From a virus (Duplodnaviria; Caudoviricetes): a DNA stretch of 32,016 nt. The stretch covers positions 1 through 32,016 of IMG/VR virus record IMGVR_UViG_3300006920_000143; one strand, given 5' to 3'. The position numbers were made by a program, and so were the translations under genes. This document shows, one piece after another, positions 1-24,101 of the stretch. Each line of letters starts with the position of its first letter. Position 1 is the first letter of the stretch. Below the pieces are notes generated by a model. The model did not search any database. It had not been told where the DNA came from and was given only the letters and a program-made list of their open reading frames with translations.

Positions 1-576
1 GCTGCTCTTGCGCCAGATTTAGCAGCAGCTGAAAAGGCTAAGGTTAAGGCTCTTATGGACTCCGGCTTATCTGAAGATAAAGCCAAACTTGAAGCGGCTG
101 ATTGGGCAGCCGGCCAACAGAACCGTCTTACTAAAGCAGCCGAGGGAATTAAAGCCAAGAAAACCGAAGCCGAGAGTTTTGCCGGTGATGCGGGTTATCT
201 TAAAAATGTTTCTGCTATGGACGTGGCCGGTAAAGCGGGTGAAATCGCGGTTGCTGAAAAACGTAATATCTTTAGAAACCAAGGCGGTGGCGGCGACAAA
301 GCCAGTGTTGTTCGGCGTGTGATGACGGACGCGGACGGTAATGCCGTTGCAATTATGAGTGACGGTAGCAAAAAAGACCTTGGCATGAAGGGTTCTGATT
401 ACGATAAAAAGATTGCCGACATCCAGTTGAAGATGGAAAAAGAAGACCCGAAGTTTGCCAAGAAGCCGGCTGCTGAGAAGCGTGCTATTGCTGAGCAGGT
501 GCTTACTGGTAAAGTTCCTTCGTCTGCTGGTCCGGTTAAAAAGGCGTTGCCAATCACTTCTTTCGATTCAAAGTAA
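1..576 (+). CDS. Putative internal virion/ejection protein, 5' truncated
   Basis: Frame open from base 1 to TAA at 574-576; Ala/Lys/Gly-rich; directly upstream of the giant virion protein genes. Function inferred from position. Confidence 0.6.
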   Translation, partial: AALAPDLAAAEKAKVKALMDSGLSEDKAKLEAADWAAGQQNRLTKAAEGIKAKKTEAESFAGDAGYLKNVSAMDVAGKAGEIAVAEKRNIFRNQGGGGDKASVVRRVMTDADGNAVAIMSDGSKKDLGMKGSDYDKKIADIQLKMEKEDPKFAKKPAAEKRAIAEQVLTGKVPSSAGPVKKALPITSFDSK

Positions 577-585
577 GGACACGGC

Positions 586-3500
586 ATGGCGTTTAACGTC
601 GAAGGTGCATTAAAAGCTGGTTATAGCCGCGCAGAGATTGCGGACTATCTTGCGTCAAAGAATAAATTTGATGCAACGTCAGCACGTAAAGCCGGTTATT
701 CAGACGATGAGATCGTCGCGCATTTGACTAGCGCAGCTGCGCCTGCGCCTAACAAACCAGCCGAGCCTACTACCTTCGAAGGCAAGGTAGACAAGGACGC
801 CGACAAGCCGGGGTTGATTGAGAGTGCTGCCAAAGTAATCAAAGACGTCTTTACGCCAAGCTCCGGCAGCGTGATGGACAACGCGCCCCCGGTTAACCAG
901 CAGGCAGAGATTGATAAGCGACTAGCTTTAGGTCAAGGTCCTATCAGCCCCGAAGCTGTCACCGAAGCGCAAAACATCAGAGAAGGCAAAGCACCCCGCG
1001 TAGTTACGCCCGGTGTTGGCCGAGTAGTCTCTGCTCTTAACAAGCAACGCGCACCGACAGTGAAGAGTGTGGTTTCCGAAGTTGAGCCTTACATAGATAG
1101 CGATTATCAAACTGGCGAATTCGTCGGCGACGTAAGCAAACAGTTCGGTGGCGCAATTGTAGGCGGTACTTTAAAAACCCCTAGCGGAATTGAAACAGGA
1201 CTTCGAGGTCTTGTTCGGAATGTTTTATCCGGGGACGCGTTTGCCGCTACTCCAGCTGGTCGTTTAATTACTACTGCCCAAACTGCTTTAGCTGACGCTT
1301 TTGGTTTACGAAGCGTAGCTGAACAAACTGCAGATAAAGAAGCGGCTAAAGTTACGATTGATCGCGCTTTGTCTGGCGTCCCGGCTATTCCGGGTACTGC
1401 TGAATTAGCGCAGTATGGCGACCGCGTTCAAAAAGATATTCAAGACAGCCTTTCTATAACAGGTAAAAAGATAATTGCTGGGTCTACGCCGTCCGGCAAT
1501 ATTTTTAAAGGTGAATTAAGTTTTGGTGATGATCCAACCTTATCTGGATACGCTCTTCAAGCTTCCAGTGTGTTGGGTTCTTTAGCACCCGTTATCGCTA
1601 CTATCGTGGCCACGAGAAGCCCAACAGCCGCCGCTGGAGTTGGCGGTGGTATGGCTGCCGGTGAAGCAGCAGACGCCGCAAGAACTTACATAAGCAAATT
1701 AACTGACGCTCAATTACAAGAAGCCAGTCCTTATTATCAGACGTTAATCAAACGAAACGTATCGCCGCAAGAAGCCCGAACAATCGTAACGGATAAAGCA
1801 GCCGAGAACGGCGCAATGTTGCAGGGTATGGTTGCTGCTGTAGGCGACCGTATTACTGGTAAGTTTTTGACCGGGGCTTATAACGATATCCTAAACCGTG
1901 TTGGCGGCAAAACAGCTTTAGGTAGGGTTGGTATAGCTGCTCCCGCTGCAGCAGTTGAACAAGGTACTCAGGAACTTTTTGAGGGTTTAGCTTCTGATAT
2001 TGGTATTCGCTCACAAATTGTTAATAAAGAAATTGGCGAAGATTCCGCTGCAAATTTAATTCTTGGTGCTTTGGGCGGTGTTGGCCCCGGGGCTTATCAA
2101 GGCGTTAGAACTAAAACCCAGCTCACACCTGAGCAAGAGATTGCACGGACGATTGACCAAAGCGTTGCTGGTGCTCAGCCCGCCGGTACACGCCAAGCAG
2201 CTGTTGCTGCTCTGAACCCGCAAACCTACGACCAGACACTGATCAGCTTAGAGCAGGCTACGGCTGCCAAGACGGCCGCCAGTGAGGCTCGGACGGTTCT
2301 TTTGGAGCAGGACAAGCAAGCGGCTACCGCGTCGCTCCAGCAAGCCGCTACGGCCTCTGACGCGATTGCCGCAGCTGAGCAGCTGGCTGGCGACGCTAAC
2401 GACATCCTTGGACCTACGCCGGCGCCTGTCCTCAACATGGGTCGTATTGAGCCAACGCTTGGACCTGTGGCGGAAATACAACAGATTCCGGGGCGTATCG
2501 AGCCTACAATGGAAGCCTCGGTTTTACCTGTGCCAAGCCTTGAGACCGAACAGAGATTCGGTCTTGATAAATTGCGGCTGGCACCAACCACGGAAGCCCC
2601 AAGTGTCGAAGACAATTTCATCTCAATCCCGGAAGCTGAACCGGCCGCAGTGCCTAACTTACCTGCTGCGCAAGCAGACAGAGAAGTTGTCGCCACAGAA
2701 GCAAGAACAGCTGCGCAACAGTCTCTTGAAAGATGGGCTGCCGCTAATAACGTAGAAGTACCTGCGCAGCTAAACCCTGCACCTGACGCAGAGACTGCCG
2801 AAATTAATGCTGTTGCGGACGCATTGGACAGCCAGTTCGGCGGTAAGCTGTACGCGTTTCATGACACCAGTCCGACGGCGTTGAACGGTCTTGCACTTGG
2901 CGGCAGAGCTTTTGTCAACACCGCGAACGTGGACATCAACGTAACCCGGACATCGCTCCACGAGTTCAAGCACAGAGTCGAACAAATTGCATTAGCTGAA
3001 GCCCGCCAAGGTCTAACTGACACGCCGGCTCAGCGGTTCGTCGCGGCAATAGATTCGCTCTATGACGACAACCTAACCGAGAAGGGCAAGCGTGCCTATC
3101 TCGAGAAGTTTCTGGCTAAGGCTGAGCTGGCAGGTATCACTGACCCGGCTGCACGCGAAGCGCGTATTCAGGAGCTGATAGCCGACCCGGTAACTCGGTC
3201 AGAGATGACCGCCGACTTCCTTGGCAACCGTGCCGTTGACAAGCAATTCTGGGCTGATGTAGAGCAAGCTGACCCGGAAGGGTTCAAAGGTTTCGTCGAG
3301 AAGTGGCTAAGTATTATCGACAACCTGATGGCCACCTTGCGCGGCAAAGCTACGCAGGGACGTGGCCAGTCGGCTAAAGTCGATGCTTACATGCGTGATC
3401 TGGTCAAGGCCAAGATGGTTGCACGCGAGGCGCTTATCGCGTATCGTAAGGATCGAACTCAAGGAGAACAACGTGAAACAAATATCCCCGCCGGAGCTGA

Positions 3501-5697
3501 AGGCGTACAGCAAGCTGCAGAACGAGGTGGACCAGTACCTGCAAAAAGTAGGCGCGGTGAGCTCCCAAGCTACGGAGAGCCAATCGAAGGCGCAATCTCA
3601 GTCGTCGGCCGGCACTACTCGCCCAGAGTCCAAACTTCGTTAAGCGGTAACTACTACGGCACGGGTATCCGTGGCGCAGAGGCAGGCCGCCTACGTCAGA
3701 GCACTGACTCGCGGATTGGTAACCGCATCTATTTCTATGTGGACACAGGCAAGGGCATTCGCCCTGAGAGCGGCGTAGGCCGCTTTGCTCACGAGGTCCG
3801 ACTCAACAACATCTACGATCCGGCAACCCGCCTGATCCCTTCCCAGCCTAACGCTAATGCTTTCGAGTCGGCAGTCATTGACGCCGGGTTTGATGGCTAC
3901 ATTGCGCCATTCGGCAACGGCGGTGCTGTCGTTTTGCTAGGCAATAAGCACGACGCCGTGCCGGTCCAGTCTTTGGAAGAAGCACCAGCGTTTGCTAAGC
4001 GGCAGAAAGCCGAAGAAAAAACAATTGAGCCGGAGAAAGATTTAGGCACCTTCCGTTCAGTAGCGGATTCGCTAGGGTTGTCTGAGGCTGAATACAAAGC
4101 TACCGCTTTGGGTTTGATGACTGGCAAGACGAAGAGCGAAGCTTTTGAAACGCCTTTCGTCGGCGGCATCCCTCCGGTAGTTGAGTGGCTGGACAAACGC
4201 TATCGCGATGCAGGCATGTCTTCCCTTGATTTAAACAAGCCTGAAGACCGCACAACCGTAGCCAAGATGATGGCGGCTGAAGCAATCGCCGCGATCAAGA
4301 GCGCAGGCAATGCGGTCGAATGGTACGACGAGACTGTGAGAAGAACGCTGAGCACTATGGCGGTCAAGTATCCGGAATTGAACACGGATCAAAATGCTCG
4401 GAACGCATTCCTGATAGCTACCGCGATATCGTCCCAGACGATGAACGTGGAAGACAATCTGCGGTATGCCTCAAATCAATACGAGGCTTTCCGTAAGACC
4501 GGGAAGTTCCCTGAAGTAGGCACCGGTAAGTCTGCTCCAGCTATGGGTAAGAACTTTGCTCTAGCTAACAGCCTGCTCGAAGAGATGGGACCGGACCTGC
4601 TTCGCCGATTCTTGCAAACGGAATTTACCAAGCGCGAACTTGAAAGCATAGGCTTTAAGATTAGCGGCGAGTCGATGAACGAGAAGATGCTTGGCTCGGC
4701 AGTGTTTGGTCCCAAGATTGGTTTCGGTTTCTACAGTAACCTGTCAGGTAATTTCGAGCCGGTAACTATGGACATGTGGTTCATGCGAACCATTGGCCGT
4801 TTGACTGGTAAGTTGCCGGCGTTTGATGAAAAGCTTTTTGCTAAGCAAGTAGCCAACCTTCGCAGTGCTATTGCAGAGAAGGGCGATTCTAGTAGGGGGC
4901 TGTTTGCTGCCGACTTCGACCAAGCTTTAGTAGATGAAGCGATGAAGTCGGACGACGGCGCTATCGCTTTGGCTCGAGCTGTAAACAGTTTGCACAACAG
5001 GCAGTTTATAAAAGAGCGTGCCAAGTTTGATTCAAAAGAAAGATACAAAACAAATCTTGTCGGAGCAGCCGGTACTATTTTAAAATCGGCAGACAAGCCA
5101 AAGGATTCACCGGGCGGAGGCGGCGAACGCCAACGCCTGCGAGACGTGGTCCGCCAAATGGTAGCACTGGTGGAACAGCAGACCGGCAAGCGCGTACCAC
5201 CCGCTGCTTTGCAAGCTTTGATCTGGTACCCAGAACAAGAGCTTTATAAAAAGCTGGGTGTTAAACTACGTGTTACTAGCCAAGACTACGCCGGAGCGGC
5301 GAAGTCGCTTTTGACAAAAGAGGGTTTCGATGGAAAACGAATTAGCGCAGCAGCCGAATCTGGATCAGGACCAGCACGACAAATGGCTGGCGGCAAAGTC
5401 GCCGGACCAGCTGCAAAGGCTGGCGCAAAGGGTGAAAGCACTGGCCCTCTCAAAGGAAAAGAGCGGGAAGCTTTCGTCGGGCCGCGTGTTGCCGAAAAAT
5501 TAGCACAAGAAGCTAAAGCTAAACCCTTAACCGAATTGTTTGCCGGCCTAAACAAACGTGGTCTTGCCAAGACCCGCGCTGAGGCCGCCGTTAAAGCACG
5601 TCCCGATGCTGCGCAAATTAACTATGTGCAGGACAACTTCCTTGATATCCTGTCCGAGTTGGAAGACTCCGGCGCGGTTTCGATCAACTGTGATTGA
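586..5697 (+). CDS. Large polyvalent virion/ejection protein (1703 aa) with zincin-like HExxH, ART-like and HhH-glycosylase-like domains
   Basis: RBS AAGGA at 575-579. N-terminal tandem AGYSxxEI motif, Gly/Ala-rich helical region, HEFKH (2959-2973) with downstream EMTADFLG, RHYS..YFY..GFDGY domain (~3560-3980), and WYD..GPKIG..NL.GNFEPVTMDMWFMR..QALIW domain (~4300-5250). Confidence 0.75.
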   Translation: MAFNVEGALKAGYSRAEIADYLASKNKFDATSARKAGYSDDEIVAHLTSAAAPAPNKPAEPTTFEGKVDKDADKPGLIESAAKVIKDVFTPSSGSVMDNAPPVNQQAEIDKRLALGQGPISPEAVTEAQNIREGKAPRVVTPGVGRVVSALNKQRAPTVKSVVSEVEPYIDSDYQTGEFVGDVSKQFGGAIVGGTLKTPSGIETGLRGLVRNVLSGDAFAATPAGRLITTAQTALADAFGLRSVAEQTADKEAAKVTIDRALSGVPAIPGTAELAQYGDRVQKDIQDSLSITGKKIIAGSTPSGNIFKGELSFGDDPTLSGYALQASSVLGSLAPVIATIVATRSPTAAAGVGGGMAAGEAADAARTYISKLTDAQLQEASPYYQTLIKRNVSPQEARTIVTDKAAENGAMLQGMVAAVGDRITGKFLTGAYNDILNRVGGKTALGRVGIAAPAAAVEQGTQELFEGLASDIGIRSQIVNKEIGEDSAANLILGALGGVGPGAYQGVRTKTQLTPEQEIARTIDQSVAGAQPAGTRQAAVAALNPQTYDQTLISLEQATAAKTAASEARTVLLEQDKQAATASLQQAATASDAIAAAEQLAGDANDILGPTPAPVLNMGRIEPTLGPVAEIQQIPGRIEPTMEASVLPVPSLETEQRFGLDKLRLAPTTEAPSVEDNFISIPEAEPAAVPNLPAAQADREVVATEARTAAQQSLERWAAANNVEVPAQLNPAPDAETAEINAVADALDSQFGGKLYAFHDTSPTALNGLALGGRAFVNTANVDINVTRTSLHEFKHRVEQIALAEARQGLTDTPAQRFVAAIDSLYDDNLTEKGKRAYLEKFLAKAELAGITDPAAREARIQELIADPVTRSEMTADFLGNRAVDKQFWADVEQADPEGFKGFVEKWLSIIDNLMATLRGKATQGRGQSAKVDAYMRDLVKAKMVAREALIAYRKDRTQGEQRETNIPAGAEGVQQAAERGGPVPAKSRRGELPSYGEPIEGAISVVGRHYSPRVQTSLSGNYYGTGIRGAEAGRLRQSTDSRIGNRIYFYVDTGKGIRPESGVGRFAHEVRLNNIYDPATRLIPSQPNANAFESAVIDAGFDGYIAPFGNGGAVVLLGNKHDAVPVQSLEEAPAFAKRQKAEEKTIEPEKDLGTFRSVADSLGLSEAEYKATALGLMTGKTKSEAFETPFVGGIPPVVEWLDKRYRDAGMSSLDLNKPEDRTTVAKMMAAEAIAAIKSAGNAVEWYDETVRRTLSTMAVKYPELNTDQNARNAFLIATAISSQTMNVEDNLRYASNQYEAFRKTGKFPEVGTGKSAPAMGKNFALANSLLEEMGPDLLRRFLQTEFTKRELESIGFKISGESMNEKMLGSAVFGPKIGFGFYSNLSGNFEPVTMDMWFMRTIGRLTGKLPAFDEKLFAKQVANLRSAIAEKGDSSRGLFAADFDQALVDEAMKSDDGAIALARAVNSLHNRQFIKERAKFDSKERYKTNLVGAAGTILKSADKPKDSPGGGGERQRLRDVVRQMVALVEQQTGKRVPPAALQALIWYPEQELYKKLGVKLRVTSQDYAGAAKSLLTKEGFDGKRISAAAESGSGPARQMAGGKVAGPAAKAGAKGESTGPLKGKEREAFVGPRVAEKLAQEAKAKPLTELFAGLNKRGLAKTRAEAAVKARPDAAQINYVQDNFLDILSELEDSGAVSINCD

Positions 5698-5705
5698 GGT
5701 TTAAT

Positions 5706-6197
5706 ATGACACCCAAAATGATTATCGATAGCAGCCTCAAGGCTTTGATTGATGACGCCATTCATTCGGAGCTTTACGCTTCGAACCTGTACAAGCACAT
5801 CGCTAACCAGCTGCAACGCATCGGCTACTTTGGCGCACAGAAATTCTTTGCCGCCGAAAGCGCAGCCGAGTTGGCGCACTACCAGCTTCATGTGCAGTTT
5901 CTGAATGACGTCGGTGGTGTGGCCAAGGTGCCTGCCATCGAGGCAATGAATGAGCCTATCAATACCCTGAGCGACGCGGTCGAACTAGGGTACGAGACCG
6001 AGCTGCAATTGTATGAAGATTACATGGACTGGTACAAGCAAGCCGATTCTGACCCGGTGGTCCAGCAATTCTTGCTTCAGTTCCTCGAGATTCAGCGCAC
6101 CAGTGTTGGCGAGTATGGCGATCTCTTAGCCCGCATCCAGCTTGTAGATCAAGACAAGGCTGGAATGTTGCTAATCGATCAGGAGATGGGCGGCTGA
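5706..6197 (+). CDS. ftn: Non-heme ferritin-like protein (163 aa)
   Basis: GAGGT RBS at 5696-5700 favours ATG 5706 over the TTG start in the track. ELYASNLY..G..G...FF..E...EL.H..YETE..FL..Q...L..ID.E aligns by eye with E. coli FtnA. Confidence 0.85.
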   Translation: MTPKMIIDSSLKALIDDAIHSELYASNLYKHIANQLQRIGYFGAQKFFAAESAAELAHYQLHVQFLNDVGGVAKVPAIEAMNEPINTLSDAVELGYETELQLYEDYMDWYKQADSDPVVQQFLLQFLEIQRTSVGEYGDLLARIQLVDQDKAGMLLIDQEMGG

Positions 6198-6198
6198 G

Positions 6199-9100
6199 AT
6201 GACTTGTACCTACACCTTTAAACGCAAGGATGGATCGACTGAAAAGATTGTTGGCCAGCCTGCGCTTAAAGCGTTTCTGGTCAAGGGCGGTCTCGCTGAA
6301 TTCCTACCTGCTCGAGAGCTGCCGGCGTTTAGTAAACGCCAAACAGAGACACCGGAATTCAAACGGTTCTTTAAAGACAGCAAAGTAGTGGATGGGAACG
6401 GCGAGCCGTTGGTGGTGTATCGAGGAACCCGTACTAACGTATCGAAATTTGATACAACTAATGGCGTTTATTTTACTGAGAATACAAGAGCAGCAAATAT
6501 TTATGCCGGAGAATCTGAAGGCGCAAATGTTATTCCTGCGTATTTGAATATTGCAAACCCGTATACTGCAAAAGACTATGGTGACATAGGCGTTTTTACT
6601 AAAGATAAAATTCAACGTCTAAAAAAAGAAGGTTTTGATGGCGCAGTTTTTACGCAAACTCAAGAAGACGGAACGCCGTACACTGAATACGTAGTATTCG
6701 AGCCGACTCAAATTAGATCAGCCACTAGCCCAGACATCCGATATCAACGTCGTGAAGGCGACATCGGCGACGCCTTGCAAGACCGCGTCGATAACGACTT
6801 CGATGCGTTGGCCGAAGAGTACAACAACCTCAAGGGCACAGACGGCGGTAAGGTGCTGGACGCTGACATCGCTCGTGAGCTGTCGCCAGAGTACCGCGCA
6901 GATCGTTCGCGTGCAGCAGAGGTGCATGAGGCCGTAGGTAATTTCATTGACAAGCTTTACGCAAAACGCGTTGAAGAGATTGGCCCGAACGGAGTCGTAG
7001 CATTCATGGCTGGCGGCGGCGGGGCTGGTAAGTCTAGCGTGCAGAAGTTCTTAGGCGACCGCCTTAATGCAGCGGACATTGTCTACGACGGCACCATGTC
7101 CAGCTACGACAGCGCAAAGAGGCGTGTCCAGTTGGCGCTCGACGCCGGTCATGGCGTGCTCATCTCCTACGTCTACCGCGACCCAGCAGAGGCCGTAAAG
7201 AACGGCGTATTCCCAAGAGCAATGAAGACCGGGCGCACAGTCCCAGTCGCTGCCTTAGTCAAAGGGCATGCCGGTTCCAGTGAAGCCATCCGCAAGTTGC
7301 AGGAAACTTTCGGCGACGACCCGGCTTTCGAGATTGTTGCAATTGATAATTCCCGTGGCCCAGATGGAGCAGAAGTTGCGCCACTTGCAAGTATCCCTCG
7401 TGTTAAGGTAGAGGGGTTGAAAGAGAGGTTAATAGATGTCACCAATGAAGAGTACGAAGCCGGCCGAATCAGCGGCATCATCAGCAGAACCACGCTCGAA
7501 GGCTACACGCCCGGTCCCGGAAGCACTGCGACTAAAGCTGCACCGACTGAAGGCCGGCGTAGAGAAGGCGTTCAAAGGCGGCGCGAGCTTGGCGGAGAGC
7601 GAGACACCGTAAGCTTTAGCCAGCGCGGCAAAGAGACCGAAGGCTGGATTCTTAGCCGTGATGAGCTTGGCCGCTTCCGTTTCGGTGCAGGTGCGAAGGC
7701 ATACAATCTGGCCGCTAATGTAGCCAATAATGTTCTCGACCGTATCGGCTTGAAGCCAGTGAGTCCTGAGCTTAGCCGTGCAATGCGCAAGATGAAAGCC
7801 GAAGTCGAACGCGCTCAGAGGCTGACCGTTGACGTGGCCAGCAAGATGAAAGACCTGCCAGAGCAAGAGCGGAAGATGATCAGTGACATCATCGAAGGCG
7901 AGCTCAAGCGCGGATCAAAGCCAGCCAAGCATGTGCTCGAGCTGGCCGCATCAATCCAATCAATTATGTCAGAGCAGTCCGCTGAGCTTGTCCGTCTGGG
8001 CATGCTATCACCCGGCGCCGCTGGTCGTTGGGACGGTAAGTACCTCCCACGTTTCTACGAGCAAAAGCTTGGCGATGAAGTCAAGTCATGGGCAAAGGCC
8101 GCTAAGGCTTTGTTCGGCCGGCAGAAAACGATGCAGGGTATTGGCGGCTCCAGTCTGAAGTCTCGAGGTATGTTTGAGAACGTGCCGGTCGAGGACCTGC
8201 AAGACTGGCTAGATGAAGGCTGGGAAGTTCGGGATGAGGCATACGACCCGGCGACCGACGAGGTGGTCACAGTCTGGCGCGATTACACGCGCAAAGAGCG
8301 TGATGACATGGGCGAGATTCGGGACGCAATGTTCCGCTTCGTGATGGGCTACAACAAGTCGCAGCGAGACATCGCTCTTGGCCGCCTGTACGAGAACCTT
8401 GCCAAAGACTACGCCAGTAAGAAAGAGCAACCGGGTTACATCCAAGTGCCGACGACTAAGGTCGAAGACACGATGGCCCGTAGATATGGGAAGCTGGCCG
8501 GTAAGTGGGTGCCGGCTGAGATCATGGACCACCTGTCAGGCTTTGACAACAGTCAACAATCAGAGCTGATCAAGATGTACCTCAAAGGCTTGTCGATGTG
8601 GAAGGAAGGCAAGACCGTCCTGAATCCTGTATCACACGCGAACAACGTCCTGTCCAACTTGACGATGGCGCACTTTGCCGGAGTCTCATATTGGGACATC
8701 GGTAAATACGCAGGCGCAATCCGTGACTTGGTTAAGAACGATCCGATGGTCGATGAGGCTTTAGACGCTGGCCTATTCGGCGGCACGTTTAATCGCGCAG
8801 AACTTCTGAACGAGATGCCTGAGCAGCTGAAAGCTTTGGCTCAGGTCAGCGAGTCAAGACTCAAGCGAGGTGTCGATACAGTTTGGAACGCAATGTCGTG
8901 GTTTGTTCGTAAGCCAGCGGCCAAAGCTTACCAAGCTGAGGATACTTTCTTCCGCTATCTGATTTACCGCGATGCTCGCAAGCGCGGAATTAGCGTCGAT
9001 GATTCGGTTGAATTCTCGCAGCAATTCCTGTTCACTTACGACGACATGCCGAAGACCGCTCGAGCTTTGCGCGACTTCGCTTTGCCGTTCTTTGCGTACA

Positions 9101-10014
9101 CCTACAAGGTCGTGCCGCCTCTGGTCCGCACAGCATTAGAGACGCCTTGGCGCTACGCTGCTCCAGCTGGTGCCTTGTACACGGTCAACGCGCTAATGTA
9201 CGCTATGGCCGCGTCTCTTGGCGGCGGAGAAGATGAAGATTGGTGGACTGTGATTCGCCGGTATGTCACCGACCCTGAGTTTAGAAATCGCGTAAAAGAG
9301 TTCGAGTCTGAAGAGCGTAAAAACCTGCCAGATTGGATGAAGGGTTACAGTGCAACTCTCGGCACGCCGAAGGCGATCCGCCTTGGCATGGACGACGTGA
9401 CTAACCTCCCGTTGTTCCTTGACGTTAGCCGCGTATTCCCGGGCGGTGACTTGCTTGACGCGCATGCAAACGCTGGCGGCATCCCAATCCTGCAACCGAT
9501 AACGCCTAGTAATCCAATCCTTAATACGCTTGGCGTAATGCTCTGGAATAAAGATTCGTTCTTCGGTAAAGACATCGTTGACAAGTCAGACACCAGCGCA
9601 GAGGCCGGTCAAAAACGGGCCAAGTGGATGTGGCAGCAGTTCGCACCTGCGGTTGCAATCGGCAACTACCATTGGGACCGGGCGATGAACGTGATTGCCA
9701 ACACCACTGGCCAGTCTGTGCTTGGCTACACAGGTGTCGATAAAGGTGGCCTGCCAGTGCAACCGGGTTATGCCTTGGCAAACACGGTCGGCATCAAGAT
9801 CAAACCTGTTGACCTCGAGCTGTCTGAGGAGATCAGTAAGTCTGAGCGCAGCAAGCTGGTACGTGAGCTGGACATGAAGATCAAGCGCATCAATAGGCTT
9901 GAAGGGTCCGGCGCCGTAACAGAAGAAGCGGCAGAAAAAGAACGTGAGACGCTCCAAGAAAAGAAGAGCCGTCTCAAGGAAGGTTTAACCGTCGAAGGTA
10001 AAGAACCTAAATAA
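6199..10014 (+). CDS. Large polyvalent virion protein (1271 aa): ADP-ribosyltransferase-like domain, zeta-toxin-like P-loop domain and long helical C-terminal region (LPD38-like, unverified)
   Basis: TPEFKRFFKDSKVVDGNGEPLVVYRGT..YFT..AY L..GFDG..EYVVFEPTQI is typical of the ART domains of polyvalent proteins. AGGGGAGKS Walker A, IVYDGT and RAMKTGRTVP are zeta-like. AGGAG RBS at 6181-6185. Confidence 0.8.
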   Translation: MTCTYTFKRKDGSTEKIVGQPALKAFLVKGGLAEFLPARELPAFSKRQTETPEFKRFFKDSKVVDGNGEPLVVYRGTRTNVSKFDTTNGVYFTENTRAANIYAGESEGANVIPAYLNIANPYTAKDYGDIGVFTKDKIQRLKKEGFDGAVFTQTQEDGTPYTEYVVFEPTQIRSATSPDIRYQRREGDIGDALQDRVDNDFDALAEEYNNLKGTDGGKVLDADIARELSPEYRADRSRAAEVHEAVGNFIDKLYAKRVEEIGPNGVVAFMAGGGGAGKSSVQKFLGDRLNAADIVYDGTMSSYDSAKRRVQLALDAGHGVLISYVYRDPAEAVKNGVFPRAMKTGRTVPVAALVKGHAGSSEAIRKLQETFGDDPAFEIVAIDNSRGPDGAEVAPLASIPRVKVEGLKERLIDVTNEEYEAGRISGIISRTTLEGYTPGPGSTATKAAPTEGRRREGVQRRRELGGERDTVSFSQRGKETEGWILSRDELGRFRFGAGAKAYNLAANVANNVLDRIGLKPVSPELSRAMRKMKAEVERAQRLTVDVASKMKDLPEQERKMISDIIEGELKRGSKPAKHVLELAASIQSIMSEQSAELVRLGMLSPGAAGRWDGKYLPRFYEQKLGDEVKSWAKAAKALFGRQKTMQGIGGSSLKSRGMFENVPVEDLQDWLDEGWEVRDEAYDPATDEVVTVWRDYTRKERDDMGEIRDAMFRFVMGYNKSQRDIALGRLYENLAKDYASKKEQPGYIQVPTTKVEDTMARRYGKLAGKWVPAEIMDHLSGFDNSQQSELIKMYLKGLSMWKEGKTVLNPVSHANNVLSNLTMAHFAGVSYWDIGKYAGAIRDLVKNDPMVDEALDAGLFGGTFNRAELLNEMPEQLKALAQVSESRLKRGVDTVWNAMSWFVRKPAAKAYQAEDTFFRYLIYRDARKRGISVDDSVEFSQQFLFTYDDMPKTARALRDFALPFFAYTYKVVPPLVRTALETPWRYAAPAGALYTVNALMYAMAASLGGGEDEDWWTVIRRYVTDPEFRNRVKEFESEERKNLPDWMKGYSATLGTPKAIRLGMDDVTNLPLFLDVSRVFPGGDLLDAHANAGGIPILQPITPSNPILNTLGVMLWNKDSFFGKDIVDKSDTSAEAGQKRAKWMWQQFAPAVAIGNYHWDRAMNVIANTTGQSVLGYTGVDKGGLPVQPGYALANTVGIKIKPVDLELSEEISKSERSKLVRELDMKIKRINRLEGSGAVTEEAAEKERETLQEKKSRLKEGLTVEGKEPK

Positions 10015-10119
10015 TCAGTTATCGCTCATCAGATAAACCGCTGCGCATATTGCTGCGCAGAATACCCCGAGACCGACTAACGTCGAGCCTAAGATAAATA
10101 GAAGAACAAGGTAGTTCAT
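10015..10119 (-). CDS. Small membrane protein (34 aa), not in the ORF track
   Basis: MNYLVLLFILGSTLVGLGVFCAAICAAVYLMSDN; ATGA overlap with the upstream gene; one hydrophobic helix. Confidence 0.55.
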   Translation of the reverse strand: MNYLVLLFILGSTLVGLGVFCAAICAAVYLMSDN

Positions 10120-10382
10120 GATTGAGCTGCCAGTTCTTTTATCTTTGCTATTGTCATCCCAGTTGCATCGTGGATGGCAAGGATCGTAGCCGCTGAGATA
10201 GGAAGTATTTTATTTCGTATCCGACTAACTGTCGGCTCAAGAAGCCCAATCGCTTCAGCTAAGCCTGCATTGTTTTTCAGGTTGTAGGTTTCAATCAAGT
10301 AGTCAAACAGCACATGACTTCTGCTTGCAGACCTGCCTCTTTTCCCAAGAGGCGCGGTCATCTCTGCTGCTCGTATGATCAT
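10116..10382 (-). CDS. Cro/CI-type HTH DNA-binding protein (88 aa)
   Basis: LFDYLIETYNLKNNAGLAEAIGLLEPTVSRIR fits an HTH pattern; start placed at ATG 10382 by ATGA coupling. Confidence 0.7.
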   Translation of the reverse strand: MIIRAAEMTAPLGKRGRSASRSHVLFDYLIETYNLKNNAGLAEAIGLLEPTVSRIRNKILPISAATILAIHDATGMTIAKIKELAAQS

Positions 10383-10585
10383 CTCTTTTCTCCTGTAATT
10401 TTGTCTTTGATGCTGCGAGGGATGCGTGGCTTTGGACACCAGCCTAAACAATCATCAGTCCAATTACCCACGATCAGCACACCGCCGGGATTCAATAGCA
10501 GCAGGCTAACCGCACGCGGAGGTGGGTCAATATCAGGGTCTCTAAAATACAGCTGATCAGTTGTTACTTGAGCGATTTCGGTCAT
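10379..10585 (-). CDS. Hypothetical phage protein
   Basis: ORF in a tightly packed operon; PP..LLL.PGGVL.VG.W....LGW.P.P pattern. Confidence 0.6.
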   Translation of the reverse strand: MTEIAQVTTDQLYFRDPDIDPPPRAVSLLLLNPGGVLIVGNWTDDCLGWCPKPRIPRSIKDKITGEKR

Positions 10586-10763
10586 TGCGTCTTTCTATTA
10601 TCTTTTGCCAGCACTCTCCGCATTTCCAGCGGCGCGTTAATCCATCCCTGCTATGTACCCATTCGCCACCTGTACGCAGTGGCCGCCGCGAGGCGCAGTG
10701 GGTACAGAACCGCTCACCCGTAGACATGTCAACCGCGAGTGTCGTCTTTACTCTGTCCGTCAT
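10557..10763 (-). CDS. Small zinc-finger protein
   Basis: CTHC...CGEC pair. Confidence 0.6.
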   Translation of the reverse strand: MTDRVKTTLAVDMSTGERFCTHCASRRPLRTGGEWVHSRDGLTRRWKCGECWQKIIERRNDRNRSSNN

Positions 10764-11061
10764 TTTTTACCCAATATTTAATCTCAACAATCTGCGCACA
10801 CTCACGCAGCTTTGATACGTTCGTGCGCTTCATTACCTCTAGCGCAATGGCAACGAAGGTCTCAATCTCTGCACGCTCTTCGTCACCCCATCCAATCAGC
10901 TCAGCAACACAGGTTTTAAGCCGCTCGTCTTTTAGCTTGGAGATCGCTTCAACTAAATACTCGAGCTCCTCATGAGGCAGTGCCGCACGCTCGTGCAATA
11001 GCTGCTTCATGCGGTTCGCATAAGCTGCAACAAAATCCCCGTCTGGTCTGATGCGTCTCAT
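10729..11061 (-). CDS. Hypothetical protein
   Basis: 110 aa helical ORF, ATGA-coupled to the upstream gene. Confidence 0.6.
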   Translation of the reverse strand: MRRIRPDGDFVAAYANRMKQLLHERAALPHEELEYLVEAISKLKDERLKTCVAELIGWGDEERAEIETFVAIALEVMKRTNVSKLRECAQIVEIKYWVKNDGQSKDDTRG

Positions 11062-11252
11062 TTACCTACCCGGCAAGTTTTTAACCATGCAATAACATCG
11101 TCTTCCAGCCACAGCAGTCTGCCGCTGCCCGGTATTCTAAGCCTCGGTGGCAGTGACTCTGGCCGGCGTCTAGCATCAACCTTAATTGTTGCTGCGGTTC
11201 TACGCAATAGCGGTGATAGGTCTTCAGGTGTCAGAACTTTAGGTACACTCAT
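11058..11252 (-). CDS. AlpA/excisionase-like winged-HTH protein
   Basis: LTPEDLSPLL..TI......P..LPPRLRIPG..RLLWLEDDVIAWL pattern. Confidence 0.7.
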   Translation of the reverse strand: MSVPKVLTPEDLSPLLRRTAATIKVDARRRPESLPPRLRIPGSGRLLWLEDDVIAWLKTCRVGK

Positions 11253-11518
11253 CGGACAATTCCGCTAAGGCGGCCTGCAACAAGCTGCGCATAGCCGGCA
11301 ATATCCACCCACGAATCTGCATAGTCAGGATCGCCGTTTAGTATGCGGGCGATCTTATGAGCAATCATTTCAAGGGCCTCTCTTTGATCGCTATCCATCC
11401 TATTCCAACCTTCATGGACCTGCATCTCAAATTTGAGTTTCTGCGATATGCTTGCGTGGTTTTTAAACAGCCCGTAACGTAAGCCGCGCTCACTCAGAAT
11501 TGCATCTACGTCGCCCAT
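11249..11518 (-). CDS. DUF6378-like phage protein
   Basis: IL.ERG.RYG.F ... EALEMIAHKIARILNGDPDYADSWVDIAGYAQL is a common motif near phage polymerase genes. Confidence 0.7.
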   Translation of the reverse strand: MGDVDAILSERGLRYGLFKNHASISQKLKFEMQVHEGWNRMDSDQREALEMIAHKIARILNGDPDYADSWVDIAGYAQLVAGRLSGIVR

Positions 11519-13536
11519 CAGTCAATCTCCTTCATGTAATACTGCGTTTCAAATCCGTCACCGCGCAACGGTAAGCCGGGTGCCCATGAGACCGGTCGGC
11601 CCATCACTTCCTCGGCTGTCTTCACGTTCCTCGGTCCGTCAATCAATTCCTCCATGATGATCTCGTCATGCACGGTCGTGAGCTGGGTGTAACCTTCGTC
11701 ATCAAGTGCAAGCATTGACTCAGCAAGAAGGTCTCTTGCGATAGCCTGAGTAATATTTTCAACCAATTTTCCGCCGTAGGTCGAGAGTCTGGTCCACTGC
11801 TTTGTCTTCTGGTCCATTCCCTCGTATGTGAGAGACCCTGACCGCGCAACAGTAAAGCTCGTGCCGTCAGTCTTGTCTCGCTTCAGGTCCGCAGTCTCGA
11901 TGCGTGGCTTGGAGTACACCAGAGCGCGGCCTGACGGGAGATGGATCATCAGCATGCCCGACGTGTAGCTAAACTGCAGCTCGGCTTTACCGCCTGCCAC
12001 CTTCAGCACGCGCACTGTCTTGTTAAGCACGGCAGCCTTGGCCGCAGCCTCGCAGTCGTACCAAAACTCGACGACCTCCGGGTTGGCCGTACGCCATGCA
12101 ACCTTGATCGGCTCGAGCTCTTCCTCAGTAAGACCCATGTCCAAGGCGCCCATCGTGATCAATGCACCTGCTCCACCTTGGTAGCCTAGCGCCAGCTCCG
12201 CGACCTTGCCTTTGAACCGGTAAGGTGAACGCTTGTCTACACTACCGGGCGGCAGCTTGAACATCTGCTCAGCCGAAGCCTCATAGATTTTGCCGTGCGT
12301 ATTGAACACCTCGAGACGCCACTTGCACCAAGCCAGCCAAGCCACGACGCGGGCCTCGATGGCGCTGAAGTCAACGATCACAAGCTTATTCCCGGGCCGT
12401 GCAACAAACGCGGTCCTGATCAACTGCGACAGGGTGTCAGGCACGTTGCCGAATAGCATCTCAAGCTGGTTATACTTGCCGGCCTTGACCATCTGACGGG
12501 CAAGGTCGATATCGCGTAGCTTGTTCTGGGGCAGGTTCTGCACCTGCACGAGACGGCCAGCCCAACGACCGGTGCGGTTGGCGCCGTAGAACTGGGTCAG
12601 GCCCTTGACCGCATGGTCCTTGCAGACAGCACGCTCCATCGCTGCAAACTTCGAAACGCTCGTCTTGCCTAGTTCTTGGCGCAGCTTGAGCACCCGACGC
12701 ACAATCGCGCTGTCGGTTGCTTCGAGAATTTTAGGGACGTTCTTCTTAGTGATGTCGCTAATGTCTTCGCTTTCCTCAGCCTGCAACCAAGTAAGTAGCT
12801 GGTTGCGGCTGTTCGGATTAGATAAGCCAGTTAGCTGGACCGCCTCGGCGAGCATCCTCTCTTTAAAGATACCGTCGCACTCGATGGCATTCGTCACCAG
12901 CTTACGGTCAAGCATCAGACCGTAGGCGTTCATGCGCTGGTCAAGGGCCCACAGGCGCCACTCTTTTGCAGGGACTGGGAACTTGGCCAGCCTTGTGGCA
13001 ATCGCCCTCTCAGCGACCACGTCGCCGGCGCAGTAGTCTACGAACAGCTGCCACTTAGCCGGGTCGTGATGCGGCAGGTTGCGAGTGCGGCCACCGTTCT
13101 TAATCGTCGGCTTGCATGGCAGGCAAAAGTAACGGATCAACTGCCAGCCGATTGACTTCTTTTGCTGGTCGGCTGCAAGGCCCATGACCTTACCGACATC
13201 AGCAAGGTTGCCGGGCAGGCCGAGGTATAAAGCATGCACGCTAGTACAACGCCACTGCGTTGTGTCAAGTTGCATTTGAAAGTGGCAATTCAAACAGGTA
13301 ATCTCGAAGGCCGCGTTATAGGCAGCCTTAATGATAGCCGGGTCATTGATAGCCGAGACAACCCTTGCCGGCAACTTCTGTCCCATTGCCAGATCGACGA
13401 CGGTCACTGGCTCGTCGTCGAAGGCATAGGCAAACAGCATGACCTCGAAGTCATCCGACTCTGCGTACTTATGCACGCCGCACTTTTTCAAGTCAACGCT
13501 GCTATAAGTCTCAAGGTCAATGCGTAGGGTTGTCAC
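11518..13536 (-). CDS. polA: Family A DNA polymerase (APSE-1 P45-like) with 3'-5' exonuclease domain
   Basis: ExoI IDLETYS, YNAAFE, RTGRWAG..Q.QNLP, motif A DFSAIEARV, motif B RFKGKVAELALGY, motif C VHDEII. Confidence 0.95.
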   Translation of the reverse strand: MTTLRIDLETYSSVDLKKCGVHKYAESDDFEVMLFAYAFDDEPVTVVDLAMGQKLPARVVSAINDPAIIKAAYNAAFEITCLNCHFQMQLDTTQWRCTSVHALYLGLPGNLADVGKVMGLAADQQKKSIGWQLIRYFCLPCKPTIKNGGRTRNLPHHDPAKWQLFVDYCAGDVVAERAIATRLAKFPVPAKEWRLWALDQRMNAYGLMLDRKLVTNAIECDGIFKERMLAEAVQLTGLSNPNSRNQLLTWLQAEESEDISDITKKNVPKILEATDSAIVRRVLKLRQELGKTSVSKFAAMERAVCKDHAVKGLTQFYGANRTGRWAGRLVQVQNLPQNKLRDIDLARQMVKAGKYNQLEMLFGNVPDTLSQLIRTAFVARPGNKLVIVDFSAIEARVVAWLAWCKWRLEVFNTHGKIYEASAEQMFKLPPGSVDKRSPYRFKGKVAELALGYQGGAGALITMGALDMGLTEEELEPIKVAWRTANPEVVEFWYDCEAAAKAAVLNKTVRVLKVAGGKAELQFSYTSGMLMIHLPSGRALVYSKPRIETADLKRDKTDGTSFTVARSGSLTYEGMDQKTKQWTRLSTYGGKLVENITQAIARDLLAESMLALDDEGYTQLTTVHDEIIMEELIDGPRNVKTAEEVMGRPVSWAPGLPLRGDGFETQYYMKEID

Positions 13537-13694
13537 TCTGTCGGCTCCTCAACTAAAACTTGTGACTTATATTGCTCAAGTATCTCGAGGAACAAAGCGT
13601 CGCTCTGTTCGCGGGGCAACTTGTTCAACGCTTGCAGTACCAGCTCAACACCGGCCGGCACCATTTGGATACTGATAATTTGTGGTTTGGTCAT
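13533..13694 (-). CDS. Hypothetical protein (53 aa)
   Basis: MTKPQIISIQM...; ATGA and GTGA overlaps at both ends. Confidence 0.6.
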   Translation of the reverse strand: MTKPQIISIQMVPAGVELVLQALNKLPREQSDALFLEILEQYKSQVLVEEPTE

Positions 13695-13978
13695 CCGTTT
13701 TTCTCTTCTAAACGCTGGCGCGCGCAAGCTAACGCTTTGTCATTAATTTCAACACGCACGAAAGATTCTTCCGCGTAAATTATCTTTACCCCCCGCTCAG
13801 CATAAAAATTCACAAGCATAAGCAAGTAGTCGGCACTAATGTTTTGTAGAGCCCTTTCCAATCGAGGGAGCGCCTGTTTAGGCAAACGCAGGTGATTGGC
13901 TACCTCAGATTGGGTCCAGCCTGTTGCCGCTCGTGCTGTGCGTAAAGCGACTGCCAATTTACATCTTATTGGGTTCAT
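13691..13978 (-). CDS. XRE-family HTH transcriptional regulator
   Basis: LRTARAATGWTQSEVANHLRLPKQALPRLER; AAGGA RBS. Confidence 0.8.
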   Translation of the reverse strand: MNPIRCKLAVALRTARAATGWTQSEVANHLRLPKQALPRLERALQNISADYLLMLVNFYAERGVKIIYAEESFVRVEINDKALACARQRLEEKNG

Positions 13979-14001
13979 AAAAATCCTTTCTTTTTAAAAG
14001 T

Positions 14002-14083
14002 ACGGGGTCACCACGCTGAACGACGACCAGAAAGATGACGTGGCCCCCGCTGCCGGTGTTATGTGCGCCACCTCCGGCTGGGC
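14002..14083 (-). ncRNA. Candidate structured RNA (two hairpins) upstream of the XRE gene
   Basis: GCCGG...CCGGC stem followed by GCGGGG-GCCACG...CGUGGU-GA-CCCCGU stem and ACUUUU. Confidence 0.45.
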
Positions 14084-14089
14084 TATTCA

Positions 14090-14254
14090 TTAAGGACGTT
14101 TCCGAATTGCTTCGGCGCGACGTTTGTGTGTTGCGGCCAGCGTGGCCAAGTTGTACGGCACGACATAATCTTTGTATTCGCCGATAACCAAGCTTGCAGG
14201 TTGATCGAAAAATACACGGTCTTTAAACCATTTTGGTTCTTTAGTTTCTTGCAT
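14090..14254 (-). CDS. Hypothetical protein (54 aa)
   Basis: GGAG RBS at 14264-14261 before ATG 14254 (MQETKEPKWF...). Confidence 0.55.
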   Translation of the reverse strand: MQETKEPKWFKDRVFFDQPASLVIGEYKDYVVPYNLATLAATHKRRAEAIRKRP

Positions 14255-14276
14255 AGTGTTCTCCAATAAATTAGGT

Positions 14277-14344
14277 GGGGTACTCGCTGCGTCTGACTTC
14301 AAGACCTACGTTTTCGGCGTATCAGTCAGCATCCGCTTTCCCCC
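14277..14344 (-). ncRNA. Candidate structured RNA hairpin with bulged-G (loop E-like) motif
   Basis: GGGG-GAAA-GC-GGAUG-CUGACU...AGUCAG-ACGCA-GC-GAGUA-CCCC with inner UACG/CGUA stem. Confidence 0.5.
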
Positions 14345-14352
14345 GTGAAATA

Positions 14353-14904
14353 TTAAGCCATGAAGTCGTCTGCGACCGCAGTGAATACGCTCGCGGCGTC
14401 TACATTACCGCCTGACAAACGCTCGCCGTCTCTGACTTTCTGGATAGCGTCAAGGCCCGGAGAGATGCCCTTGTTCGTGCCACTGTTGTAGCCGTAGAAA
14501 GACACTTGCACGTTCGCGTAGCAACCCGAGTAGACCGTGTCAGGGTCAATCACCGGCTGCACGTTCTGATCAACTACTACCGGACGACGGTTGTAGTTCG
14601 TGCAACGCAGCAGGTACATGCCACGGTTCTCGGCGCCGGTGTATTTAAATTCACCGTCGTCGTTCTTCGTGTCACCGTCCAGCAAAGGCGACTTGATGCC
14701 GGTCTTGCCTACCTTCTGCGCGTCCTTCGCTTTGGCCGCGTCGATTGCAGCCTTGATGGCTGGCACCTGCGGGCTATTCTTAGGGATCAAAGCGGTCGTG
14801 CTCCAGCTGCGTCTGCCGTTGTCGCCAACTTTACCTTCGCCAAAGATGTACGCATATGAAAGGCGTGCATTGTTGAGGATAATTTTGTGTGCTTCTAATG
14901 CCAT
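14353..14904 (-). CDS. DUF2815-family ssDNA-binding protein
   Basis: RLSYAYIF, PLLDGD, RPVVVD, YSGCYANVQVSFYGY..NKGIS.GL..IQKVRDGERL and an acidic/aromatic C-terminus; sits between the polymerase and DUF2800 genes. Confidence 0.9.
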   Translation of the reverse strand: MALEAHKIILNNARLSYAYIFGEGKVGDNGRRSWSTTALIPKNSPQVPAIKAAIDAAKAKDAQKVGKTGIKSPLLDGDTKNDDGEFKYTGAENRGMYLLRCTNYNRRPVVVDQNVQPVIDPDTVYSGCYANVQVSFYGYNSGTNKGISPGLDAIQKVRDGERLSGGNVDAASVFTAVADDFMA

Positions 14905-14940
14905 GATTCGCTCCTAGCGTTTAAGTGCTGAGTTACCGAC

Positions 14941-16092
14941 TCAGCTACGGTCATCGGCAATCGCCGAAAATCCATGATTACTTTCTATTACTTCTCTCTT
15001 GTCTGCATTCGGCACCAGTACAGGCTTGCCGGTAGGCTTCTCAATCAAGTCGCCTAGCACTTCGTCAAATCGTTTCTTACCAAGGGCGGTGGCCATCGCG
15101 GTCAGGCCGAGTAAATTCCGCTCATAGATAGCCGCCTCTTTGAAGCCGTGTTCTTTCAACCTCTCGGCAACCAAGTCCTGACTCTTGTAACGCCGATTGC
15201 TACGACCCTCGACCAGCTTATAGCCGGGCACTGCGATACCCTTCTCGGCTTGCTTTAGTGCATAACTCTGCACATCAGACACCCACTTCGATACAGTCTC
15301 GCCGCGCTCAAGGACCATCGCTATCTGCTCAAGTGTCAGCACCTCCGGCTTAACCATCGAGAAGCTTTGCTGTGCTAAGGCAAGCGCCTGCTCACTACGC
15401 GCAGCGCACTGGAAACGTGCCTTGCAAAAGCACGAAGAGCAATGATCGCCTGCAACAAATTCACCTTCTCCAGCCCAAGCAAGTGCTGCCTTTGGCTTGA
15501 CTTCATTCTCAGCCCAAGAAAGCAGGTCATCGATTGCCAGCTCCTCGCTGCTATAGTTATCCAGTCTCGGCTGCAGGATGGTCATCCGTACGGACTTGAT
15601 GTCGTACAGTAACGAATTCTCGCTATAGGCCCCGAGGCCATACAAACGCATCTGGCTATTGCCCTCGGCGCCAACAAAGATACCCTTCCCGTATTTCAGG
15701 TCGAGCACCTCAACCAGATCATCAGCAACAATCACCAAGTCGCCGGTGCCGAAACCTTCAGGCACCCACTCGCTAAAATCCAGACGCTGCTCAACTAAAA
15801 TCCTCGGGTCCGAACAACGCTTGTAAGCTTCCTTGATTCGCTCAATGCCAAACTCGACAGCCTCCGTCACATAGTCGCGGAGCTCGGGCGTGTCAAAGTG
15901 CGAGTCCTCAAGCGGGTCAACTTCACGGCCGAGGAAGGTCAGCAGCTTTTGCTCAAAGACAGCATGCGCAAACGTGCCTTCCTTTGCAAACTCAGACTCG
16001 TCATCGGGGAAGTTCTCCTCGAGGCGGGCGCTAGGTGTGCAGGTCATCCACTTCTCAGACCCAGACGCAGACAGCTTTGCGTGTGCAGTCAT
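14941..16092 (-). CDS. DUF2800-family PD-(D/E)XK (Cas4-like) nuclease
   Basis: HAKLSAS...W..C.PS, EGT.AH, GFGTGD, VLDLKYGKG, N.QMRLY, C..C...C, PGYKLVEGRSNR. Confidence 0.9.
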   Translation of the reverse strand: MTAHAKLSASGSEKWMTCTPSARLEENFPDDESEFAKEGTFAHAVFEQKLLTFLGREVDPLEDSHFDTPELRDYVTEAVEFGIERIKEAYKRCSDPRILVEQRLDFSEWVPEGFGTGDLVIVADDLVEVLDLKYGKGIFVGAEGNSQMRLYGLGAYSENSLLYDIKSVRMTILQPRLDNYSSEELAIDDLLSWAENEVKPKAALAWAGEGEFVAGDHCSSCFCKARFQCAARSEQALALAQQSFSMVKPEVLTLEQIAMVLERGETVSKWVSDVQSYALKQAEKGIAVPGYKLVEGRSNRRYKSQDLVAERLKEHGFKEAAIYERNLLGLTAMATALGKKRFDEVLGDLIEKPTGKPVLVPNADKREVIESNHGFSAIADDRS

Positions 16093-16250
16093 TTGACTTT
16101 CCTTGCCAGTAGCATTGCGTCGGCCACGTCATAAGCCGCCATCGCAACGTCGATCTTAGGCGCCTCGTCACGGTAACCTAGCGGCACGAGTGCCTGCATG
16201 GCAAAGGCAGCAAAGATATCCCGCAGGTCCTGATCTTCTTTCTCGCTCAT
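16089..16250 (-). CDS. Small conserved phage protein (LRDxFAAxAM...AYxxADAML type)
   Basis: LRDIFAAFAMQAL...AYDVADAMLLAR; start at ATG 16250. Confidence 0.7.
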   Translation of the reverse strand: MSEKEDQDLRDIFAAFAMQALVPLGYRDEAPKIDVAMAAYDVADAMLLARKVK

Positions 16251-16384
16251 AACATCCCCTTGTAAATCATGCGTGCCCAGCCGGCGACTAAACCAAGCCA
16301 TATGCCAGCGGCAAACGCACTACCAAGCCAAACGACGGTGCCTACTATTAAGGCCGTGACGGCCTGAATGGTTGACTCTTTCAT
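16247..16384 (-). CDS. Small membrane protein (45 aa), not in the ORF track
   Basis: MKESTIQAVTALIVGTVVWLGSAFAAGIWLGLVAGWARMIYKGML; ATGA overlaps at both ends. Confidence 0.6.
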   Translation of the reverse strand: MKESTIQAVTALIVGTVVWLGSAFAAGIWLGLVAGWARMIYKGML

Positions 16385-16632
16385 CGCTTGATATCCGCGT
16401 CAGGTATGTACAGTTTCGGCGTTACGTCAACCGGCTCTTCAGGGTCCGTGGTTTTACCTTGGCCCCACTCAATCGCGGCTTTGTATATCTGGGCCATGTG
16501 CGAGTGAAGGAACAAGCCGATGATCGCAGCCGGTGTAACTTCACCGGTTGTCACTGCATCAGGCGGATCGATGTCGCCCGTTGTCTTTACTTCGCCGTCT
16601 TCATCCCAGACTACTACTGTAACTTTTGCCAT
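16381..16632 (-). CDS. Hypothetical protein
   Basis: 83 aa; TAATG coupling to the upstream gene. Confidence 0.6.
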   Translation of the reverse strand: MAKVTVVVWDEDGEVKTTGDIDPPDAVTTGEVTPAAIIGLFLHSHMAQIYKAAIEWGQGKTTDPEEPVDVTPKLYIPDADIKR

Positions 16633-17042: not shown

Positions 17043-17060
17043 TTGCCATCCTTCTTATTA

Positions 17061-17404: not shown

Positions 17405-17427
17405 GTGTCCTCCTACAAGTGAAGGGC

Positions 17428-17508: not shown

Positions 17509-17516
17509 CCAAAGCC

Positions 17517-17932: not shown

Positions 17933-17949
17933 CAATTGTCATGACAAGT

Positions 17950-17986: not shown

Positions 17987-18005
17987 ATAGGCAAAAAGGA
18001 AAGAA

Positions 18006-24091: not shown

Positions 24092-24101
24092 GTATATCAA
24101 A

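Follow-up and report, generated by a model that had tools for sequence, protein, structure and literature searches.

A ferritin-containing cassette with cysteine-tipped modules splits a giant polyvalent protein in phages

The locus

The window, that is, the whole stretch of DNA analysed here, is the 32,016-nucleotide (nt) IMG/VR record IMGVR_UViG_3300006920_000143, a viral contig (32 kb, 57% complete) that begins just upstream of a gene for a giant protein. This gene and a second giant gene enclose a small ferritin gene, and the only cysteine (Cys) of each giant lies at the end that faces the ferritin. The feature is real and widespread: a cassette of a tail module, a ferritin and a head module splits a giant polyvalent protein and leaves a Cys module on both new ends. 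The locus is organized as follows (aa, amino acids).

1..576, + strand: 3' part of a gene for a Cys-free protein, directly 5' of the upstream giant; in relatives, two to three small Cys-free genes precede the giant.
586..5697, + strand: upstream giant, 1703 aa, the N-terminal half of the polyvalent protein; its start and middle match unsplit giants.
5515..5697, + strand: tail module, the last ~60 aa of the upstream giant as defined by alignment, ending V-x-I-N-C-x-stop; Cys codon 5689-5691.
5696..5705, + strand: GAGG ribosome-binding-like site, overlapping the upstream stop codon and the 8-nt gap.
5706..6197, + strand: ferritin, 163 aa, classical fold with helix E (Pfam PF00210, E 2.9e-16).
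6199..6303, + strand: head module, the first ~35 aa of the downstream giant as defined by alignment, M-x-C-x-Y-x-F; Cys codon 6205-6207.
6199..10014, + strand: downstream giant, 1271 aa, with ART-PolyVal at residues 65-177 and a Zeta_toxin-family P-loop at residues 292-371.

The sole Cys of the upstream giant is residue 1702 of 1703, in the ending SINCD, and that of the downstream giant is residue 3 of 1271, in the start MTCTYTF. The ferritin has no Cys and is separated from its neighbors by 8 nt upstream and 1 nt downstream. The earlier note on this DNA began with this arrangement, which was confirmed on the sequence in all these points. The Cys content of nine non-virion open reading frames (ORFs) of the window is 0.3-3.1%. 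Given one Cys in each giant, the chance of placing it in the last 3 of 1703 and the first 8 of 1271 residues is about 1e-5, a post hoc figure, and conservation is the stronger test. Translational coupling may occur at the GAGG site; promoter-like sites at the junction of the upstream giant and the ferritin scored no better than the shuffle level.

The upstream giant gave no match in a Pfam scan, and it resembles the unsplit giant P0002 over residues 1-55 (71%) and 630-1399 (43%). Because the downstream giant carries ART-PolyVal (E 2e-20, Pfam) and Zeta_toxin-family domains, ahead of a conserved C-terminal body (residues ~480-1271), we group it with the phage polyvalent proteins. These are described in the main text of Iyer et al. 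2017 (PMC5512222) as giant proteins of several domains, among them ART-PolyVal, LPD38 and related ones, encoded in a virion-gene context. The likeness extends to LPD38, LPD23, LPD1 and PBECR domains in relatives of our giants and to their position in the virion block after portal, capsid and tail-tube genes (G012). However, that main text makes no mention of a ferritin, a cysteine, a disulfide or a split. The gene order in relatives such as G012 is portal, major head, internal virion protein, small Cys-free genes and giants; judged by this order, the giants would be located in the virion. The product of 1..576 is likely a smaller ejection-type protein, judged by its position.

Conservation of the Cys-tipped ends

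Ferritin-based scans of viral contigs covered part of the matches, with 16 loci from one, the best 80 of 173 from another and the best 80 of 166 from a third; the pooled loci, once partial ferritins were dropped, comprised 94 distinct near-full-length sequences. A flank was counted when one of the final 8 residues of the upstream ORF, or one of the first 9 of the downstream ORF, was Cys. The earlier note had asked whether the homologs lie between a giant ending in Cys and a giant starting with Cys, and this was so for 80 of the 94 ferritins. Five had such a flank on one side only (four contig edges and one HNH insertion, after which the next gene starts GTG-TCSYTF), and nine occurred in other contexts. 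The locus L200 resembles a mis-joined contig and was counted for the ferritin-head side only. Over the 80 loci, Cys is found at -1 to -8 in the tails and at +3 to +8 in the heads. Exactly one Cys was present in 79 of 80 upstream giants (136,350 residues) and 77 of 80 downstream giants (114,284 residues), some of them cut by contig ends. The pattern extends to ferritins 38-44% identical to that of the window (the L013-L015, L095-L106 group), whose flanking giants had no BLAST match to those of the window.

In alignments of 55 tails and 60 heads, whose rows were chosen for a terminal Cys, no column other than that of Cys is invariant; the consensus around it is V/I-x-I-N-C in the tail and C-T-Y-x-F in the head. 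No conserved His and no second conserved Cys occurs in either alignment. An unselected search with the tail profile found 254 proteins among 1.84 billion, and among the 150 matches listed the module was C-terminal in all 150 and Cys was in the last 3 residues in 149. In all 69 head-module matches, Cys lay within the first 10 residues. The terminal cysteines, on whose conservation the earlier note had made its case depend, are therefore conserved in homologs. An AlphaFold2 model of the head module is a beta-hairpin plus helix, with a predicted local distance difference test (pLDDT) score of 81-85 over residues 1-30. A fold search with the modules gave no usable match (best Z 3.4, root-mean-square deviation 3.9 over 48 residues), and an Atlas search with both modules was blank.

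One giant protein divided by a portable cassette

The C-terminal half of the downstream giant has 351 long matches, above a length floor set by the search, of which 120 were listed. Among these 120, 102 contain no Cys, 11 have internal Cys only and seven carry a different Cys-bearing head, and the tail, head and ferritin profiles gave no match to any of them. The 113 without a Cys head, which are called unsplit on the basis of their length and the absence of the head, have only 41 Cys in 352,128 residues. Thirty of the 120 align with the very beginning of the window's upstream giant, and 58 with one part of it or another. The two halves together have a median length of 3,349 aa (40 complete pairs), compared to 3,123 aa in the 113 long relatives. 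A Zeta-type domain crosses the junction, being in the downstream half in the window and in the upstream half in L086. That one polyvalent protein was split in two, as the earlier note proposed, is thus upheld by the unsplit, mostly Cys-free relatives that have neither module.

A FastTree phylogeny of the C-terminal body, built from rows reduced at 76% identity and rooted only at its midpoint, had seven split representatives nested among 51 unsplit ones, and well-supported branches forced at least three changes. Over 66 pairs, pairwise similarity was correlated between ferritin and tail (0.89), ferritin and head (0.88) and tail and head (0.83), compared to 0.56 between ferritin and downstream body; these values were computed without correction for shared descent and are noisier for the shorter sequences. 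A different body was found at the end of 26 of 66 downstream giants. Because the three parts co-vary and are joined to different bodies, tail, ferritin and head behave as one cassette, which recombines onto more than one kind of giant.

Two observations show that the halves are separate proteins: the frame offset between them varies (24/38/18 over the three frames), and an HNH gene can intervene. The latter was seen in L084, where an HNH-AP2 endonuclease gene (L084:5307-5798) lies between the ferritin and the downstream giant and is a possible route of cassette spread. For the same two reasons we rejected read-through, splicing or ribosomal bypass into one chain. A natural fusion that keeps both modules was found neither among the 150 listed tail matches and 69 head matches nor among the 120 listed long relatives. 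A split intein or ligation by an N-terminal Cys was also rejected, since the Cys position varies and the window's three proteins had no intein match in Pfam. An assembly artefact was rejected in view of an independent-looking record with an identical junction and about 80 distinct homologous junctions.

A comparable division is known from the phage genes NrdA-a/NrdA-b, in which, according to the accessible part of PMC3045599, a ribonucleotide reductase gene is interrupted by mobE and new C- and N-terminal tails restore function without splicing. In both cases an inserted gene splits another one and the tails occur only in the split forms (here in 0 of the 120 listed long relatives). The insert there is a homing endonuclease, whereas here it is a ferritin, accompanied by HNH only in L084; the target there is an enzyme and here a polyvalent virion-type protein, and that part of the source mentions no Cys link. 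A remnant of the cassette was seen on a Zoogloea metagenome-assembled genome contig (L309:6190-7273), where a 262-aa ORF ending in the tail module is followed by a truncated ferritin.

A disulfide as the likeliest link

We consider it the likeliest mechanism, with a probability of roughly 60%, that tail and head dock and are locked by a Cys-Cys disulfide, which would rejoin the halves. The three-part cassette divides the giant polyvalent protein into two chains, and the V-x-I-x-C strand of the tail would pair antiparallel with the C-x-Y-x-F strand of the head. Such pairing would put hydrophobic residues and both cysteines on one face; the alternating hydrophobic residues that flank both cysteines fit antiparallel pairing with a cross-strand disulfide. 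The bond would arise by oxidation, either while the virion is assembled or afterward, and would be reduced upon entry into the host cytoplasm, and the linked halves would enter and leave the virion together. This clasp would allow a ferritin cargo to sit inside an essential gene; the ferritin may favor oxidation of the link, which can probably form without it.

Cyanopodophage A4 (Anabaena phage A-4L) offers an analogy that makes the disulfide plausible: there, cryo-electron microscopy found a disulfide between gp27 Cys1715 and gp26 Cys5 (PMC12002296, accessible part). In our check of the A4 sequences, gp27 and gp26 were adjacent giants with a single Cys each, at 1715 of 1717 and 5 of 1114. A4 and the cassette are alike in having consecutive giant ejection-type proteins with one Cys each at the facing ends. 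They differ in that the A4 genes are adjacent with no ferritin between them and that, in the A4 structure, a long helix inserts into a cleft; the accessible part of the paper neither generalizes the link nor describes a cassette (PMC12002296). Because the modules share no detectable sequence with the A4 termini, A4 serves as an analogy only. In crAss001, cargo proteins also carry near-terminal cysteines at facing ends (gp47 2339 of 2341; gp50 5 and 2404 of 2412; gp49 5), but no ferritin lies between them and gp50 has a third, internal Cys. The disulfides reported in the accessible part of the crAss001 paper are on tail and vertex proteins and none is on the cargo (PMC10172136). No description of the cassette was found in the literature searched, which included few subscription papers; the A4 and crAss001 supplements could bear on the generality of the link.

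Instead of forming a disulfide, the two cysteines might hold Zn or Fe, which the ferritin might deliver, with two tail-head pairs of an oligomer making up a Cys4 site. The invariant single Cys on each side and the co-encoded iron-handling protein agree with such a site, as does the oligomeric state of the A4 ejection proteins (PMC12002296, accessible part). We regard it as improbable, because neither module has a conserved His or a second Cys and the sole solved analog is a disulfide.

The ferritin and its role

An AlphaFold2 model of the window's ferritin (pLDDT 95) has helices at 9-39, 42-68, 88-112, 117-147 and 151-162, that is, the classical four-helix bundle with a C-terminal helix E, and Foldseek aligned it to classical ferritins with a TM of 0.91-0.95. 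The residues E22, Y29, E55, H58, E99 and Q130 are present in 213-214 of 214 sequences of the family, and E51 is nearly invariant too. The first six correspond to FtnA E17, Y24, E50, H53, E94 and Q127, which we take to be the ligands of ferroxidase sites A and B, so that the A/B ligands of Ftn are retained. Site C of bacterial Ftn, which we assume to consist of E49, E126, E129 and E130, is not: the aligned positions are D/A, I/F/L/T, K/T and S/A, with the equivalents of E126, E129 and E130 replaced. Animal H-ferritins likewise have no site C, and iron storage is therefore still allowed. The position of FtnA His46 is an invariant Glu in the phage ferritins. A role of Glu130 in bacterial Ftn is treated in the accessible part of PMC4771812. 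In comparison with classical Ftn, fold and A/B ligands are thus alike, and the phage proteins form a specific subfamily at about 20% identity.

Cys is absent from 25 of 79 cassette ferritins, and the 214 sequences have no conserved Cys column and no CxxC. A thiol oxidase of the Erv or Dsb type, with redox-active Cys, was rejected because no Cys is conserved. The family is almost confined to phages: 185,579 prokaryote genomes held six loci, on contigs of 4-18 kb. Matches at E 1e-10 comprise 1,972 clusters, a part of which could be ordinary ferritins. Apart from weak 23% matches, a search of 50,697 phage records gave no cultured relative. In cultured phages, neither the ferritin nor the tail module had a relative and head matches were at chance level; the L016 ferritin had three weak 24-25% matches. 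Ferritin-superfamily genes in phages have been read as oxidative-stress aids (PMC8008677, accessible part). The probable role of the ferritin is that of an active ferroxidase translated together with the late genes, for iron buffering or oxidative-stress control.

The ferritin is closely linked to the modules. At 65 loci found by the head module alone (40 distinct heads), it was directly upstream in 63 and beyond an HNH gene in one, and the last was at a contig edge. It was present at 44 of 44 split loci and at none of 14 unsplit ones (one of the 14 is doubtful, and 24 truncated loci were unclassed). When whole records were searched, it turned up in all 4 controls but in none of 19 records of the unsplit, truncated or other-head kind. 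The 19 include five clearly unsplit records at least 91% complete (G003, G004, G014, G016 and G017), with none in any of the five. For ferritin-free clasps we used a DNA pattern of tail and head within 30 nt, which with a wider gap recovers 36 of 79 known junctions. It gave 69 viral matches, of which two (L325 and L347) were real; in the metagenomes, with 39 of 64 parts scanned, all 119 matches proved spurious. In these two loci the modules are 3 nt apart, both cysteines are kept and no ferritin lies between them; none was found elsewhere in the records, whose completeness is 42% and 45%. On short alignments and with weak support, the modules of L325 and L347 fall within groups of ferritin-bearing ones, which suggests one ferritin loss. 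The two loci (L325:1-3042 and L347:1-3042, in G011 and G012) belong to larger phages, and the G011 halves are longer than 3,508 and 2,720 aa. An insert with a candidate nuclease-like tail at its end interrupts the upstream giant of G012.

The nine ferritins in other contexts keep the diiron ligands and are scattered on a quick tree. Some are in head operons, as in the lambda-like G009, in G007 (88% complete), where no Cys-tipped giant was seen, and in G006 (68% complete), where the giant is unsplit and Cys-free. L307 has a stop-interrupted ferritin near a giant without a terminal Cys. In the crAss-like L318 (G008:C1, near 38001-52865), a 3,970-aa protein with Cys at -2 is directly followed by a protein starting MKC, and the ferritin is elsewhere.

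The earlier note had suggested that the ferritin could be the dedicated oxidase of the link. On such a reading, its diiron site would supply oxidizing equivalents, Fe3+ or H2O2, and the disulfide between tail and head would be made before packaging, while the proteins are still in the reducing cytoplasm. The linkage at 64 of 65 head-module loci, the contrast between split and unsplit genomes, the near confinement to phages and the nearly invariant diiron ligands beside the replaced FtnA E126, E129 and E130 all speak for such a maturase. However, co-occurrence is also expected for a cassette that moves as a unit, and the ferritin-free clasps keep both cysteines, although they reflect one weakly supported event. 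Moreover, the nine other-context ferritins and L307 (for example in the lambda-like head operon and in G006) have unchanged ligands, the family has no conserved Cys or CxxC, and A4 and crAss001 have no tblastn match to the window's ferritin while their virions contain disulfides (PMC12002296 and PMC10172136, accessible parts). We therefore consider a dedicated maturase unlikely. Of the proposed oxidase, a helper role may be retained, in view of the 64 of 65 linkage and the absence from unsplit genomes. The note had also counted ferritins outside Cys-pair contexts as evidence against itself, and here 80 of 94 were flanked by both cysteines and nine lay elsewhere. It is similarly doubtful that the whole is a mobile, self-sufficient split-and-clasp cassette, which would enter unrelated giants, add the Cys modules, oxidize the pair by its own ferritin and so provide a redox-releasable joint, closed within the infected cell and opened at the time of injection.

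The slightly closer co-variation of the modules with the ferritin than with each other would be expected if they docked on the ferritin cage, or on another virion protein, with the ferritin as scaffold or co-packaged cargo; the ferritin keeps helix E and could form a cage. However, those correlations have the limits given above, both modules persist side by side without a ferritin in L325 and L347, and many ferritins, including that of the window, have no Cys for pairing. Such docking is in our judgment very improbable. We prefer the direct disulfide, in which the ferritin is co-expressed cargo, at most a helper, and probably unnecessary for the link.

Several points weigh against this preferred reading. 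Judged by the sequence alone, the invariant Cys could equally well belong to a metal bridge. The modules compared with the A4 termini had hhalign probabilities of 0.4% and 0.1% (single A4 sequences). The ferritin stays between the modules at nearly all loci, over 36-100% identity and with one inferred loss, which suggests a linkage tighter than that of a neutral passenger. The ferritin-free contigs are both less than half complete, as given above, and the adjacent Cys pair with a distant ferritin in G008 fits either reading.

Other Cys-tipped proteins and wider meaning

The A4 disulfide may reflect a wider rule, by which the giant proteins that phages inject would be linked head to tail into chains; split, unsplit and ferritin-free versions occur in nature and are available for testing it. 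The two modules of ~35-60 residues could serve as a redox-releasable protein clasp. A phage-specific ferritin subfamily is defined here; if it is true that the ferritin forms the disulfide, this would be a new job for a ferritin.

Five proteins of 598-671 aa (P0295, P0296, P0297, P0299 and P0300) have the same head module (Cys5) and a different, Cys-tipped helix end (Cys at -4), with no Cys beyond those two. Two of the group were scanned against Pfam without a match. They are candidate middle links of a chain of three or more pieces.

A second Cys-bearing head type (MSLTxC) was set aside as another system; none of its 11 loci has a ferritin. It is helical-looking and occurs on related giants (L294-L304; P0080, P0081, P0087-P0089, P0098 and P0114). 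The gene before it ends in an acidic and then hydrophobic stretch, with a near-terminal Cys in 3 of the 11 loci.

Three otherwise Cys-free giants (P0064, P0106 and P0118) have Cys-bearing internal inserts, two of them with weak LAGLIDADG matches, which are candidate intein-like elements. Downstream of the giants, positions 10116-28985 of the window form a replication block with a family A DNA polymerase, a single-stranded DNA-binding protein, a DUF2800 nuclease, a primase-helicase, VRR-NUC, an SNF2 helicase and DUF932.

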